Positions 31,658 to 39,199 of a DNA stretch of 42,025 nucleotides are shown here, one piece after another. The stretch spans positions 1 through 42,025 of the forward strand of contig JAYENX010000022.1 in assembly GCA_034722435.1 (NCBI GenBank). The letters are read 5' to 3'. Position 1 is the stretch's first letter. The number at the start of each line of letters is the position of its first letter. The notes beneath the pieces were generated by a model, which saw only the letters and a list, made by a program, of their open reading frames with translations, did no database searches and was not told the origin of the DNA. A program made the translations under genes and the position numbers. This DNA is from Nanobdellota archaeon. GTDB lineage: Archaea > Nanobdellota > Nanobdellia > Woesearchaeales > JAHWHD01.

Positions 31658-32275
31658 TTATTTCTTTTGCGCTAGTATCCATAGATGTCTTTCAGTTCTA
31701 TAATCTTCAACAACTAAAAGTATTTTAAAACCTGCCTCGGAGATTAGTTTTTTATTATTTTCAACAGAATATGAGCTCCAGGCCATAGGCGCTCCTACAA
31801 AGTCAGGATTAACTGCGCATTTCATAGACTCAGCACCTAAAGTAATCAGAATGTAACCTTTACTTTTTAATAAATAGTTCATTCTTGAGAATAATTTCTT
31901 ATGCTCAGTCCTCGGTATATGAAATATTGCAAAAAATGAAATTATAGCATTAAATTTTCCTTTAATCTCTTTACTAAAGAAATCTCCAACCATGTATTTT
32001 GCGTCTTTAACATTCTTCTTTGCTAATTCTATATGTTTCTCTGAAATATCGATTCCTGTTAATCTAATTTTATTCTTTACAAAGTATTTATCGTGAGGTA
32101 AACCAATTCCACAACCGAAATCTAAAATCTTAGAATTGTTATCCAGTCTTGAAATTAATTCATCACACATGAATTTATCGAAAGAAGTTAGTTTCGAACT
32201 TTCACGGTTATAGAATTTTTCATAATTACCTTTATTATAACCTTGTTTTACTAGTTTTCTCATGTTTGAAACCAT
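31658..32275 (-). CDS. Class I SAM-dependent methyltransferase
   Basis: ILDFGCGIG, TGIDISE, FNAIISFFAIFH, LKSKGYILI. Confidence 0.92.
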   Translation of the reverse strand: MVSNMRKLVKQGYNKGNYEKFYNRESSKLTSFDKFMCDELISRLDNNSKILDFGCGIGLPHDKYFVKNKIRLTGIDISEKHIELAKKNVKDAKYMVGDFFSKEIKGKFNAIISFFAIFHIPRTEHKKLFSRMNYLLKSKGYILITLGAESMKCAVNPDFVGAPMAWSSYSVENNKKLISEAGFKILLVVEDYRTERHLWILAQKK

Positions 32276-32568: not shown

Positions 32569-32994
32569 ATGGCGTATAATATCTATCCCAATATGAATCA
32601 ACCATTATTAGTAACTGCCGCAATTATTGAAAAGAATCAGAAACTTTTATTGATAAAAAGAGCGAGAGAACCATTTAAAGATTATTGGTGTTTTATTGGA
32701 GGATGTGGTGCATTTAAAACAACTTCAAATCCTATAGAAGCAGTAAAAATAGAAGTCTTGGCAGATATTAATTGTAACTTTAAACCAAACTTTTTTAGAT
32801 ATAATCAAGACAAATTTGAAGTTCCAACAATTACTTTATTTTTTTATGGATCTATCGAAAAGACTCCAGTAATAACACCAAAATATGTTTCTGAATATAG
32901 ATGGTTTGATAAAAAGGATATTTTGAAATTAAATCTAGGTTTTGATCATAAACTAATTCTTAATGAGTATCTGAAAAGATTCCCTTCTGAGTAA
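32569..32994 (+). CDS. Nudix hydrolase-like protein (degenerate Nudix box)
   Basis: VTAAIIEKNQKLLLIKRAREPFKDYWCFIGG, EAVKIE, RWFD, LGFDH. Confidence 0.8.
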   Translation: MAYNIYPNMNQPLLVTAAIIEKNQKLLLIKRAREPFKDYWCFIGGCGAFKTTSNPIEAVKIEVLADINCNFKPNFFRYNQDKFEVPTITLFFYGSIEKTPVITPKYVSEYRWFDKKDILKLNLGFDHKLILNEYLKRFPSE

Positions 32995-33052: not shown

Positions 33053-33790
33053 ATGGTACAACTTAAAGAGGAGTTTCAGTTATCAGAACATCTTAGTTTA
33101 GATGAATATGATGGGTACATGAAACATAAACCTCTTGAGCAAAGGATTATTTTAGATTTTGTGATTAATAGGTTAAAAGAAAAAAGCAGTCTGAAGATTA
33201 TAGAGTTCGGTGCAGGAACTGGAAGGTTCACTAAACTGTTATTAAATATATTTCCTAAATTAAACTTAATACTTGTTGAGCCTGACAAAAACTGTTGTTT
33301 AAAGTTAAACAAATTAAAAAAGAAATATCCTCAAATAAAAATAGTTCAGTCTACTGCTGAAAATTATAAGTCAAAAGAAAAGTTTGATATTGTCATCATG
33401 GCAACTGCATTTCATCATGTTGCGTTCAAGAATAAGTCTAAAGTTTTGAAACTTGTAAAAAGTATACTTAACAAGAATGGGATGTTTTTATGCGGAGATA
33501 ATTTTATTGCCGAATATAAAAATATGAAAGAAAGGGATCAAGTTTTGAAAAAGTCAATGGATAAATGGATTAGAGATGCAAAAAGAGATAACGATGTTAA
33601 AGAAATAAAAATGGCCCAAGATATGCAGAAGATAGTCTTTAGAAAAGATTATGGTGGAGAATATTTTATCTGCCCTTCAAAGTTCGAAGCACACATTAAA
33701 GAAGCTAAATTAACAGTTAAAGGTAAGGTTAATGTAACTAATACAGATCCCCTCGATATGGAGAAGTATTTCTATTTAGTTATGAGATGA
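33053..33790 (+). CDS. Class I SAM-dependent methyltransferase
   Basis: IIEFGAGTGRFT, LVEPD, FDIVIMATAFHH, LNKNGMF. Confidence 0.9.
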   Translation: MVQLKEEFQLSEHLSLDEYDGYMKHKPLEQRIILDFVINRLKEKSSLKIIEFGAGTGRFTKLLLNIFPKLNLILVEPDKNCCLKLNKLKKKYPQIKIVQSTAENYKSKEKFDIVIMATAFHHVAFKNKSKVLKLVKSILNKNGMFLCGDNFIAEYKNMKERDQVLKKSMDKWIRDAKRDNDVKEIKMAQDMQKIVFRKDYGGEYFICPSKFEAHIKEAKLTVKGKVNVTNTDPLDMEKYFYLVMR

Positions 33791-35500: not shown

Positions 35501-36088
35501 ATGAAAACTAAAAACATGCATACTAGTAATTTACTTCCAAAAAAGATAAATCCTATAATTGAAATCTTTTTTGAATATGCACAGTTAAAAAACCTTTATC
35601 GTCAGGGTTGGCTAAAAAGAGGAGTATCTAAGTTAGATTGTGAAACTGTTGCAGAACATTCTTTTGGAGTCGCATTATTAGGGTATATAATAGCTGAAGA
35701 ATATAGACCCGATTTAGATTCATTTAGAGTAATGAAATTAGGATTGTTTCATGAGATGGGAGAAATATATGCGGGAGATATAATTCCGTCAGATGATATA
35801 AGTATTGAGGATAAAGCTAAAAAAGAGTTTCAAAGTGTTCAACAAGTTTTTTCAGGATTGCCAAATGCTAAAAAATATGTTGATATTTGGTTAGAATATG
35901 AACATCAAGAAACTCCTGAAGCAAAGTTTGTAAAACAAATAGATAAACTTGAGATGGCTTTACAGGCAAATTTATATGAAAGAATGGAGTATACTGGTTT
36001 AAATGAATTTTTTCCTTATGTTGAACAAAGAATTAGTTCTCCAGAATTGAAACCTATCTTAGATGAGATTCTAGAAAGTAGAAATTAA
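35501..36088 (+). CDS. HD-domain 5'-(deoxy)nucleotidase-like protein (YfbR/HDDC2 type)
   Basis: LKNLYRQGW, ETVAEHSF, LFHEMGE..AGDIIP (HE in place of HD), EAKFVKQIDKLEM. Confidence 0.87.
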   Translation: MKTKNMHTSNLLPKKINPIIEIFFEYAQLKNLYRQGWLKRGVSKLDCETVAEHSFGVALLGYIIAEEYRPDLDSFRVMKLGLFHEMGEIYAGDIIPSDDISIEDKAKKEFQSVQQVFSGLPNAKKYVDIWLEYEHQETPEAKFVKQIDKLEMALQANLYERMEYTGLNEFFPYVEQRISSPELKPILDEILESRN

Positions 36089-36580: not shown

Positions 36581-36676
36581 TTCAGGACATATAAATGGAT
36601 TTCTATTTAAAAATGTTTAGATTTATAACATAAAGAACAATAAAACTTATAAAGTTAAGATTTTGTTTTTTGTTAG

Positions 36677-39199
36677 ATGGTAGACGTAGTTGGTATAGGA
36701 AATCCCTTGATAGATATTCTTGTGAATGTTGAAGAAGATATCTTGCAAAGGTTTGAACTTAAAAAAGGTATTATGCACCTTGTTGATAAAGAAAAAAGCG
36801 AACTAGTATATTCTTCGTTTGATAAAAACAGTCTTAAGATATCTCCAGGAGATTCAACTGCTAACACTTTAGCAGGTATTGCTAATCTTGGCGGAAATGT
36901 AACTTTCTTCGGAAAGATTGGACAGGATGAGTTCGGAAAATACTATAAAGATGATTTGATTAAAAGTAATGTTAAACCGTGTTTAGCAATAGGTGAGGGC
37001 GTAACTGGAAAAGTTATCAGCCTTATAACTCCTGACACTGAAAGGACAATGGTGACACACCTAGGCGTGGCTTGCGGTTTACAGAAACAGGAAATAATTG
37101 AAGAAGAAATAGTTAACAGTAAATTCTTACACTTAACAGGGTATCAACTTGAAGAACCTTTACTTAAAGAGACTGCTTTTCGGGCAATGCAGATTGCTAA
37201 AGATCATGGCGTAAAAATATCTTTGGATTTGGCTGACCCCGAACTTGTTAAAAGAAATGTGGCAAGCCTTAAAACGATACTTGAAGAGTTTATTAACATT
37301 GTATTTGCTAATGAAGAAGAAGCAAAAGCTTTGACAGGTCTTGAACCTGAACAAGCAGTTGAAGAGATATCTAAATTAGTTGATATTGCAGTTGTAAAAA
37401 TAGGTAAAGAGGGTAGCTTTGTAAAAACAAAAGGTGGACTTTACAGAATTGAAGGATTTGTTGTTGATGCGGTTGACACTACAGGTGCAGGTGACATGTT
37501 TGCAGCAGGTTTTCTTTATGCACTTTCTAACGGAGAGAATGTTGAAATGGCTGGAAAAATGGGTAGTTATGTAGCTTCAAAAGTTGTGAATGGTATAGGC
37601 GGAAGATTGAAAGAGAAGATTGACATTTCAGTGTTAAAAAATAACAAACCAACTAGTAAAAACAATAGTGTTACTAATGATGATGAAGAAAATAATGATG
37701 TTAAAAAGAATAATGAAGCTAATAATAATAATAATAATAATGATGACAATGAAACAAATGAAAAAGGTGGTGGTGTTAATATGAACGAAACTGAAAATTA
37801 TAAAATCAAAGATATGAATCTTGCTGAATTTGGAAGGAAAGAGATTGGAATTGCTGAGAAAGAGATGCCGGGTTTAATGGCGATAAGAAAAAAACATGGA
37901 GATTCAAAACCTTTGCAAGGAGCAAAGATTATGGGTAGTTTACACATGACAATACAGACAGCTGTCTTAATCGAAACATTAGTTGATTTAGGTGCAGATG
38001 TTAGATGGGCTAGCTGTAACATTTTTTCCACACAAGACCATGCAGCGGCTGCAATAGCTAAAGCAGGTGTTCCAGTTTTTGCATGGAAAGGCGAAACATT
38101 AAAAGAATATTGGTGGTGTTCACAGAGAGCTTTAGATTTTAATGGTCAAGGACCTGACTTAATAGTTGATGATGGCGGAGATGCTACCATGATGGTTCAT
38201 AAAGGTGCAGAAGCTGAAAAAGATCCTTCATTATTTGATAAAGATTATAGCGGAGAGGGTGAAGACTTTCGTGAGTTAATAGCTTGCCTAAAAGAAGAGT
38301 ATGCAAAAGATAACCAGCGTTGGACTAAAGCTGCTGCAGGTATTAAAGGAGTTAGTGAAGAAACCACTACAGGAGTTCATAGGCTTTACCAGATGCTTGA
38401 TAGAGGAGAGTTAATGTTCCCAGCAATAAATGTAAACGATTCCGTTACAAAGAGTAAATTCGATAATGTGTACGGGTGCAGGCATTCACTTAACGATGGA
38501 ATTAAAAGAGCTATGGATGTTTTGATATCAGGGAAAACTACAATGATATGCGGTTTTGGTGATGTTGGTAAAGGTTCAGCTGCGTCAATGGCAAATGAAA
38601 AAGCTAGAATCTTAGTTTCTGAAATAGATCCTATATGTGCATTACAAGCTTGCATGGAAGGGTATAAAGTGTGTACTATTGAAGATGCTTTACCTATTGC
38701 GGATATTTATGTAAGTACCACAGGCAACAAAGACATTATCACTGCTGAGCATATGTCTAAAATGAAAGATCAAGCAATTGTTTGTAATATTGGACATTTT
38801 GATAATGAGATTCAGATGGCTGAGCTTGAAAGCTGGCCAGGAATTAAGAAAGAAGAGATTAAAGGAAGCGAGTGTCCAGTGCACAGATATACTTTCCCAG
38901 ATGGTCATTCAATCTATATATTAGCAGAAGGTAGATTAATTAATTTAGGATGTGCAACAGGTCATCCTAGCTTTGTCATGAGTAACTCGTTTGCTAACCA
39001 AACCTTAGCACAAATTGAGTTATGGACTAAAGAACACGAAGTTGGTGTTTACATGTTACCTAAAGAACTTGATGAAGAGGTTGCAAGACTTCACCTTTTA
39101 CAGCTAGGCGCTAAATTGACAGTAATGTCACAAGAACAAGCAGATTACCTTGGCGTGCCTGTGAAAGGACCATATAAATCTGAGCATTATAGGTATTAA
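36677..39199 (+). CDS. ahcY: Fusion of PfkB adenosine-kinase-like domain (aa ~1-320) and adenosylhomocysteinase (aa 369-840)
   Basis: Kinase: [45 protein letters not shown]. AhcY: [75 protein letters not shown]. Confidence 0.95.
37721..37741 (+). repeat. (AAT)7 in-frame microsatellite encoding poly-Asn in the inter-domain linker
   Basis: aataataataataataataat, read as NNNNNNN. Confidence 0.95.

Follow-up and report, generated by a model that had tools for sequence, protein, structure and literature searches.

The window analysed here is a stretch of 42,025 nucleotides (positions 1 to 42,025 of contig JAYENX010000022.1, assembly GCA_034722435.1) from a Nanobdellota archaeon of the order Woesearchaeales. 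Within it, one open reading frame (ORF) encodes 840 amino acids (aa) without an internal stop and consists of three parts: a PfkB adenosine-kinase-like domain, an asparagine-rich linker, disordered and about 47 residues long, and a complete S-adenosylhomocysteine (SAH) hydrolase of the long type, AhcY (Table 1). On the 840-aa protein, Pfam places PfkB (PF00294) at aa 47-310 (E 4e-47), AdoHcyase (PF05221) at aa 374-839 (E 9e-147) and AdoHcyase_NAD (PF00670) at aa 597-762 (E 1e-71). An initial annotation, made from the letters of the window, had described one 840-aa ORF with two complete enzymes and intact motifs, and the frame, the Pfam and NCBIfam matches and the invariant catalytic residues all bear this out. 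We think it likely that this is a bifunctional gene of a Woesearchaeota-type DPANN archaeon, that it arose from a pfkB-ahcY tandem, and that it couples the removal of SAH to the formation of AMP.

In the source assembly's protein set, this locus of the contig is represented by a 472-aa AhcY alone (P0005, 100% identical), which starts at the internal ATG at 37781. The gene caller annotated this shorter product alone because the linker still closes with the former Shine-Dalgarno site and ATG of ahcY. The frame that the initial annotation took for granted thus exists, but the existing gene call begins inside it and leaves the kinase half uncalled. In the source assembly, the 368 codons upstream of 37781, the complete kinase included, are unannotated, and other metagenomic '470-aa AhcY' calls could conceal fusions likewise.

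In an AlphaFold2 model built on 30 fused homologues, the predicted local distance difference test score (pLDDT) is about 90 in both halves and below 50 at residues 322-368. The predicted template modelling score (pTM) is 0.50, and a fixed geometry between the domains is not predicted.

Table 1. Features of the fused gene and of its flanking and internal signals, in positions of the window
Feature	Position	Strand	Basis or remark
Whole fused gene	36677..39199	+	840 codons plus stop; ATG start; ORF list, translation
PfkB-family adenosine-kinase-like domain, aa 1-320	36677..37636	+	Pfam, PDB matches, conserved residues, AlphaFold2
Asn/Asp/Lys/Glu-rich linker, aa 321-368	37637..37780	+	predicted disordered; former intergenic spacer
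Perfect (TAA)7 / (AAT)7 triplet microsatellite in linker	37720..37741	+	Tandem Repeats Finder: period 3, 7.3 copies, 100% matches
Shine-Dalgarno-like GGTGGTGGTG, 5 nt before internal ATG	37766..37775	+	ahcY ribosome-binding-site relic, may still work
Internal ATG (Met369)	37781..37783	+	ancestral ahcY start; start of source gene call (P0005)
Long-type (insert-bearing, bacterial/eukaryote-like) S-adenosylhomocysteine hydrolase, aa 369-840	37781..39196	+	TIGR00936, PDB alignments
Nucleobase motif H423-M-T-I-Q427	37943-37957	+	sequence
TATA-like box TTATAAA, 30 nt 5' of the ORF ATG	36647..36653	+	putative promoter element
Shine-Dalgarno-like motif before the AhcY Met at other fused loci			G001 GGTGA; G074 GGTGA; G237 GAGGT; G364 GGAGG; G319 GGAGG

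Conserved residues and likely substrates

The key residues of the kinase half are D13 (in GNPLID), N63, R123 (in ERT), N212 and E215 (NxxE) and the catalytic GAGD, G270-A271-G272-D273; all of them are invariant across the 30 fused homologues. The NxxE and the catalytic-base motif DTxGAGD are those of the PfkB fold, and an adenosine-kinase-type lid is present, its segments GIGNPLID and ERTMVTHLG aligning to 1DGM/1LII and 3UBO. In the alignment with Toxoplasma adenosine kinase, the GNPxxD, ERT..THLG, NxxE and DTxGAGD segments match column for column. We take the aspartate of GNPxxD to be the ribose-binding one, and the other lid-segment residues and the arginine of ERT..THLG presumably have the roles given to them in the literature.

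Among solved structures, the best relatives of this half are 3UBO, labelled 'adenosine kinase' (E 2e-47), and 4E3A (E 5e-45), the latter presumably crystallised with adenosine; the Toxoplasma and human adenosine kinases come next. The E-values of other solved relatives are worse by 25 orders of magnitude than those of the adenosine-kinase entries of the PDB. Both 3UBO, from Sinorhizobium meliloti, and 4E3A, from Rhizobium etli, align with the kinase half over its full length and share its GN..D, ERT, NxxE and DTTGAGD motifs. They differ from it in being single-domain proteins and in having GGS where the window has GDS, and as structural-genomics entries they are compared here by sequence and label. 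The closest unfused homologues are called 'adenosine kinase [Candidatus Woesearchaeota archaeon]' at NCBI, which is an annotation only. Given these matches and names, the initial annotation was right to call the N-terminal half adenosine-kinase-like, and its substrate is most likely, and most simply, adenosine.

The hydrolase half belongs to the NCBIfam ahcY equivalog TIGR00936, which it matches with 589.6 bits (cut-off 497.6) over model positions 1-416 of 416. Its conserved residues include H423-x-T425-x-Q427, the NAD-binding glycines and the C-terminal K834/Y838/Y840. Across the 30 fused homologues, H423 and T425 are invariant, Q427 is nearly so, and the AhcY core is invariant. The motif HxTxE/Q is that of SAH-preferring enzymes, and HxExK that of S-inosylhomocysteine hydrolases (PMC10978960). 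By its HxTxQ motif, the AhcY half is therefore predicted to prefer SAH and adenosine. It aligns over its aa 4-472 with the long-type SAH hydrolases 6UK3, 5V96, 3OND (Lupinus), 4LVC (Bradyrhizobium) and 3CE6 (M. tuberculosis), at E 1e-175 to 1e-203, and has in common with them the HxTxQ motif, an insert of about 40 residues and a C-terminal K..Y tail. None of these structures has an N-terminal kinase, however, and archaeal relatives of the window often have the short archaeal type of AhcY instead. This invariance of the kinase residues and of the AhcY core across 30 fused proteins means that both halves, and with them both activities, are under purifying selection.

A rare but recurrent architecture

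A homologue search of 5.8 billion proteins, to which a search for longer proteins with the kinase domain alone added more, brought to light 29 other proteins with the kinase first and AhcY second, making about 30 fused homologues from independent metagenomes. Fused relatives are 786-830 aa long, and three of them (P0002-P0004, from independent assemblies) are 74-78% identical to the window's protein over the full length. Seven fused loci were verified in the DNA of species genomes of this DPANN class. Besides the window, these are G074 and G237, of one genus, with stop-to-stop frames of 834 and 837 aa; G364 (824 aa); G319 (807 aa); G522 (813 aa), from a different order of the same class; and G001, whose frame runs for at least 746 aa to the end of its contig. 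The genome G001 is flagged as unpublished, and NCBI nr gives public access to its incomplete protein under the name 'adenosylhomocysteinase, partial [Candidatus Woesearchaeota archaeon]'. Apparent fusions in G010, G357, G294, G213 and G262, with listed open frames of 734-1048 aa, were rejected, as the DNA has stops between the genes in all five; a listed frame length does not by itself suffice to call a fusion.

The homologues and the seven loci confirm the initial annotation in its claim of a genuine fusion. That a stop or frameshift was lost through an assembly or sequencing error in the AAT-rich, low-complexity linker is exceedingly improbable. A perfect (AAT)7 tract is indeed prone to length errors, but such errors in a triplet repeat preserve the frame, and in the three most similar homologues, which come from other assemblies, the fusion runs through a shorter linker with no such repeat. 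Fused frames of 807-837 aa, free of stops, are also present in five more species genomes. Because independent assemblies and these five other genomes hold fused frames, the join is not a local sequencing error.

Within the window's order, the fusion occurs in 6 of the 401 species sampled (about 1.5%), the window's own genome counted. A scan of contigs with the kinase alignment, in which the matches listed were mostly bacterial, found AhcY within 3.5 kb at 5 of 80 loci and fused at none of the 80. When a representative library was searched with the kinase domain, almost only unfused proteins were returned, and the fused forms had apparently been absorbed into AhcY clusters. The architecture can also be found in public databases, for example in MAH07601.1 (823 aa), which is labelled only 'adenosylhomocysteinase'. 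Literature searches found no paper describing a natural covalent fusion of adenosine kinase and AhcY, in agreement with the initial annotation, which knew of no characterised one. It had conceded that the architecture might turn out to be common and already described; it is rare and we found no description, but it is not unique, having stood unremarked in the databases. The two enzymes themselves, and the way in which they cooperate, are textbook knowledge.

Origin from tandem genes

Among the 28 genomes of the order with both matches listed, 17 have a pfkB gene that precedes ahcY by 0.7-4 kb in the same orientation, and further pfkB-ahcY tandems were seen in relatives at the DNA level; these adjacency counts include the unpublished genomes G374 and G210. 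Such unfused pairs of Woesearchaeota/Nanoarchaeota-type DPANN archaea agree with the window in the two proteins encoded, their order and their common strand (kinase 41-60% identical, AhcY 64-83%), and their ahcY Shine-Dalgarno site persists as the end of the window's linker. They differ in having a stop codon and a spacer between the genes, where the window encodes one polypeptide. The order of the genes is reversed in G192 and in one Nanoarchaeota metagenome-assembled genome.

In all four genomes examined with a gap of 0.6-1.3 kb between pfkB and ahcY, an Lrp/AsnC regulator gene lies in the gap on the strand opposite to theirs. These genes, divergent from ahcY (L016:2819-3259, L017:2397-2879, L015:2377-2895 and L021:2656-3192), encode a candidate regulator that would adjust the methyl cycle in response to amino acids. 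No Lrp/AsnC gene adjoins the fused ORF of the window.

Two genomes have pairs that lie in one frame at very short distance. The gap in G294 is 18 nt long and contains two stops, and in G357 (G357:C82, L063:2300-2400) the genes are separated by TAA and 15 nt. The latter state could be pre-fusion, a freshly broken fusion or a candidate for read-through.

As the ends of the linkers retain the ahcY Shine-Dalgarno site in frame, the fusions are losses of a stop codon in a tight tandem. Loss of the pfkB stop merged the gene with the downstream ahcY, and the short spacer, Shine-Dalgarno site included, became an in-frame linker. In the window, that linker was lengthened later by AAT/GAT triplet repeats. 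Linkers in fused relatives are about 1-44 residues long, and the closest relatives have an alignment gap of about 30 residues precisely at the position of the window's linker. Linker ends of the form 'KG[DE]xxM' recur because the fused genes still spell the ahcY Shine-Dalgarno site in frame. The ends 'KG[DE]xKM' shared by long-type fusions and by the short-type P0122 were considered as proof of a single event and rejected, since unfused genes also have a translated ahcY Shine-Dalgarno region.

In the tree of the kinase domain, the label 'fused to AhcY' needs 11-12 changes. A single clade of 29 fused kinases, a group that was named after a first tree had been seen, costs 501 log-likelihood units and is rejected (approximately unbiased (AU) test, p 2e-63). 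The AhcY tree, in which only unfused genes verified in the DNA were used as such, has 9 changes of the fused label, and well-supported branches make at least 5 of these unavoidable. Both types of AhcY, long and short, which are about 40% identical to each other, occur as fusion partners. The trees thus require at least 5 fusion or fission changes, in keeping with several independent origins.

The fused gene of G001, which belongs to the same genus as the window's genome (G000), combines a closely related kinase with a different hydrolase. Its kinase (P0122) is 71% identical to that of the window and is nested in the same kinase clade (SH-like approximate likelihood ratio test (SH-aLRT) 96 and 100), and its AhcY half is of the short archaeal type, with HxTxE. 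Either the AhcY half was replaced in place or close relatives fused their genes independently; the shared linker end is compatible with both. In a comparison of G000 and G001, synteny upstream of the fused gene was not conserved.

Expression signals and protein products

Genome-wide, TATA-like hexamers peak sharply at -32..-27 of those starts in G000 that lack a Shine-Dalgarno site (45% and 39% of these starts; background about 8%), and in starts with such a site the peak is at -50..-41. This strong signature of leaderless mRNAs can help to correct start codons. ATG 36677 has TTATAA/TATAAA at -30/-29, and no TATA-like box was found at -50..-41 of ATG 37781. The fused mRNA is probably leaderless and translated from ATG 36677. 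With the TTATAAA so placed, and none at -50..-41 of the internal start, production of the full-length protein is to be expected.

The internal start has signals of its own. The Shine-Dalgarno-like stretch at 37766-37775, GGTGGTGG, contains the motif GGTGG, and the sequence before the AhcY methionine reads GGTGGTGGTG-ttaat-ATG. A Shine-Dalgarno-like pentamer is kept at this place in 6 of the 7 DNA-verified fused loci, which come from at least 4 lineages; in the window's genome only 2.7% of in-frame internal ATGs are preceded by such a motif. Unfused ahcY genes of relatives have GGTGAT 5-8 nt before the ATG in 8 of 9 cases. Of the 26 fused proteins that allowed the motif to be located, 23 keep the methionine. 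Both the Shine-Dalgarno site and the methionine are lost in the 813-aa fusion of G522, and P0017 has no methionine there.

One ORF may thus have two products, the internal site also yielding a free 472-aa AhcY, and this would be compatible with a bifunctional full-length protein. It is a serious possibility, although we lean against it, and we judge in the same way the further proposal that the fused form is minor, or that it forms mixed hetero-oligomers with free AhcY at a variable ratio of kinase to hydrolase. The retained motif and methionine, the resemblance to unfused ahcY genes and the choice of the source's gene caller all speak in favour of an internal start. On the other hand, the motif may be merely the relic of a young spacer, and a Gly-Asp/Glu dipeptide, encoded by GGN-GAN and a possible mark of a translated Shine-Dalgarno site, is missing from many fused proteins that keep the methionine. 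There is also no TATA-like box positioned for an internal promoter. The fused protein alone therefore suffices in the lineages of G522, which lacks both elements, and of P0017, which lacks the methionine. The initial annotation read the locus as a single polypeptide; its 840-aa frame stands, but the internal site, which it did not consider, may yield free AhcY as well.

Metabolic setting

The genome G000 is 1.3 Mb in size and 94.5% complete. Above curated cut-offs, it encodes a bacterial-type MetK, a methylthioadenosine (MTA) phosphorylase, a fusion of Maf with adenine phosphoribosyltransferase, AMP phosphorylase, form II/III RuBisCO and an MtnA-type isomerase. It has no PfkB gene other than the fused one. 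An MTAN/LuxS route is lacking, because the sole PNP_UDP_1 gene is that of the MTA phosphorylase (MTAP). At this level of completeness, searches of G000 did not find adenosine deaminase, MetE, a MetH/BHMT homocysteine domain or the Cys/Met pyridoxal phosphate (PLP) enzymes of trans-sulfuration, nor did they find the archaeal S-adenosylmethionine (SAM) synthetase (PF01941).

The equilibrium of AhcY favours the synthesis of SAH, and product must be drained for hydrolysis to proceed. From the gene content we infer that AhcY is the only visible route of SAH removal in G000 and the kinase the only visible drain. The pull of the kinase would be needed because hydrolysis of SAH is unfavourable and no other sink for adenosine or homocysteine is recognisable. 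These metabolic gaps, together with the conserved pfkB-ahcY tandem, back the functional link between kinase and AhcY that the initial annotation had proposed, and so do the fusions of this kinase subfamily to MTA phosphorylase and to a SAM methyltransferase.

In the mechanism that we envisage, the C-terminal AhcY would form the usual NAD-dependent oligomer and cleave SAH to adenosine and homocysteine, and the tethered N-terminal kinase would convert adenosine and ATP to AMP. The kinase would in this way keep SAH low and the methyltransferases active, and the adenosine, saved as AMP, would enter the nucleotide pools or the AMP phosphorylase/RuBisCO route. Both the coupling of the halves and any advantage of the fusion are what we infer from this arrangement. 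A benefit, if there is any, is more likely to come from fixed 1:1 expression and proximity than from a true channel. The initial annotation had gone further in suggesting that adenosine is channelled, and the structural model does not sustain this: with a linker of such low pLDDT (322-368), a pTM of 0.50 and no fixed geometry, it suggests tethered proximity and 1:1 co-expression at most, and physical channelling is not supported.

Several other genes of SAM metabolism were noted in the window and its genome. Near the fused gene, at 31658-32275, 32569-32994, 33053-33790 and 35501-36088 of the window, lie genes for two SAM-dependent methyltransferases, a NUDIX hydrolase and an HD-domain (YfbR-like) 5'-nucleotidase. 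Producers of SAH and nucleotide-handling enzymes are thus encoded beside a gene that clears SAH. A second fusion in the genome, of 367 aa, joins an N-terminal Maf nucleotide pyrophosphatase to a C-terminal adenine phosphoribosyltransferase (G000:C29:3909-5009; L031:1435-2535, minus strand). Its gene lies between those of MetK (C29:1646-2803) and MTA phosphorylase (C29:5569-6318), forming a small cluster for the salvage of SAM by-products. MetK (TIGR01034) and the AhcY of the window (37781-39196) are both of the bacterial/eukaryote-like kind. Given the short archaeal AhcY of G001 in the same genus, this suggests that genes of the methyl cycle were replaced piecemeal.

Weighing the explanations

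The PfkB half might not be an adenosine kinase at all, and might instead act on ribose-1-phosphate, on inosine and guanosine, on a broad range of nucleosides or on a sugar, in which case AhcY would be linked to a remoter step. We regard this as unlikely. The genome does encode AMP phosphorylase, RuBisCO and e2b2/MtnA-type isomerases, of a pentose-bisphosphate route, with the fused gene as its only PfkB gene, and sister fusions pair the same kinase subfamily with a nucleoside phosphorylase that yields a ribose-1-phosphate. The kinase half has weak NCBIfam matches to ribose-1-phosphate kinases and a GD instead of a GG hinge. However, these matches lie below the cut-offs, at 103.8 bits against 330 for the ATP-dependent model (NF053626) and 77.6 against 500 for the ADP-dependent one (NF041134), as does the match to inosine/guanosine kinase (NF011655; 89.7 bits against 367, limited to aa 4-249). 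The best solved relatives are adenosine-kinase entries, and the GNPxxD lid is of the adenosine-kinase type. Furthermore, the HxTxQ motif of AhcY is of the adenosine/SAH type and not of the inosine type, and the AMP phosphorylase route takes AMP rather than ribose-1-phosphate. Against the bifunctional SAH-to-AMP gene that we prefer, several points must be set. No NCBIfam equivalog, that of adenosine kinase included, matches the kinase half above its cut-off. Where a Gly-Gly hinge would be expected, the window has PGDS (Gly-Asp). The Gly-Asp hinge is found in 50 of the roughly 267 relatives in which the motif was located, proteins named adenosine kinase by NCBI among them; because these some 50 relatives are unfused, it is a trait of the subfamily and does not result from the fusion. 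The absences on which the metabolic argument draws were scored in a genome that is 94.5% complete, and the long disordered linker gives no pointer to a tunnel or a fixed interface. With its Shine-Dalgarno site and ATG retained, the gene may yield mainly free AhcY. Finally, the fusion is rare, and its advantage, if any, is modest, for most relatives do without it.

Another explanation is that the fusion is a neutral accident. A single stop mutation can fuse genes that are nearly in frame, and the halves would then work as before with no kinetic benefit. We find this doubtful, though it deserves more credence than a kinase with another substrate. In G357 a single TAA stands in the way of fusion, and in G294 the gap is in frame and 18 nt long; the fusions are scattered, mostly in shallow clades, and occur in about 1.5% of species, with linkers of 1-44 residues that are poorly conserved and a tether that is disordered. 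Counter to this, 19 of the fused proteins form a clade of some age, in which the AhcY halves are 66-75% identical to that of the window and every member keeps both active sites. G522, without an internal start, therefore relies on the fused form, and a benefit would at least be in keeping with fixation on repeated, independent occasions. At the other extreme, in DPANN cells where neither homocysteine nor adenosine has a recognisable sink, the gene could be a selected, self-contained machine that turns SAH into AMP, with a tetrameric AhcY core and up to 4 tethered kinases. The internal Shine-Dalgarno site and ATG would then be kept to mix fused and free subunits and so set the ratio of kinase to hydrolase, and the type of AhcY would be swappable within a genus. 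This elaborate arrangement seems improbable to us. A bifunctional gene that came from a pfkB-ahcY tandem and links SAH hydrolysis to AMP formation is the explanation that we favour.

Implications and related systems

The fusion is natural 'Rosetta-stone' evidence that a widespread and biochemically uncharacterised prokaryotic subfamily of PfkB proteins works with AhcY, most simply as adenosine kinase. If it is adenosine kinase, thousands of genes annotated as 'sugar kinase' could be better annotated. For genome-reduced archaea without methionine synthase, the fused enzyme is a possible way to keep SAH low, and for biocatalysis it may offer a ready-made, single-polypeptide module of SAM regeneration. 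Because fused, one-stop-away and unfused states coexist among close relatives, these genes also form a clean system in which to study the kinetic gain from a flexible tether. Gene callers can overlook the kinase half, as happened in this assembly.

Kinases of the same subfamily have been joined to other partners. Six proteins of 757-815 aa (P0123, P0124, P0126, P0128, P0130 and P0131) combine PfkB, a PNP_UDP_1 domain of the MTA phosphorylase type and a phosphoribosyltransferase, and two of about 600 aa (P0125 and P0183) combine PfkB and MTA phosphorylase without the phosphoribosyltransferase. The kinases fused to MTA phosphorylase are 44-47% identical to that of the window. In P0138 (628 aa), a PfkB kinase of the same subfamily is fused to a SAM-dependent methyltransferase, and in P0087 (690 aa) a HAD-family hydrolase is fused to a long-type AhcY. 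The triple PfkB fusion would be a three-enzyme polypeptide for the salvage of adenine and adenosine. We came across no description of these sister fusions. Like the protein of the window, the sister PfkB fusions have an N-terminal kinase (36-47% identical), and their partners all handle adenosyl by-products of SAM; they differ from it in the C-terminal partner.

The cooperation of the two enzymes has well-known precedents. In eukaryotes, adenosine kinase and SAH hydrolase cooperate non-covalently, and engineered cascades for SAM regeneration add adenosine kinase to SAH hydrolase. The logic is the same as that proposed here, in that removal of adenosine pulls the hydrolysis of SAH. Those systems, however, consist of separate proteins or of mixtures in vitro, whereas in this archaeon and its relatives the two enzymes are naturally and covalently joined.

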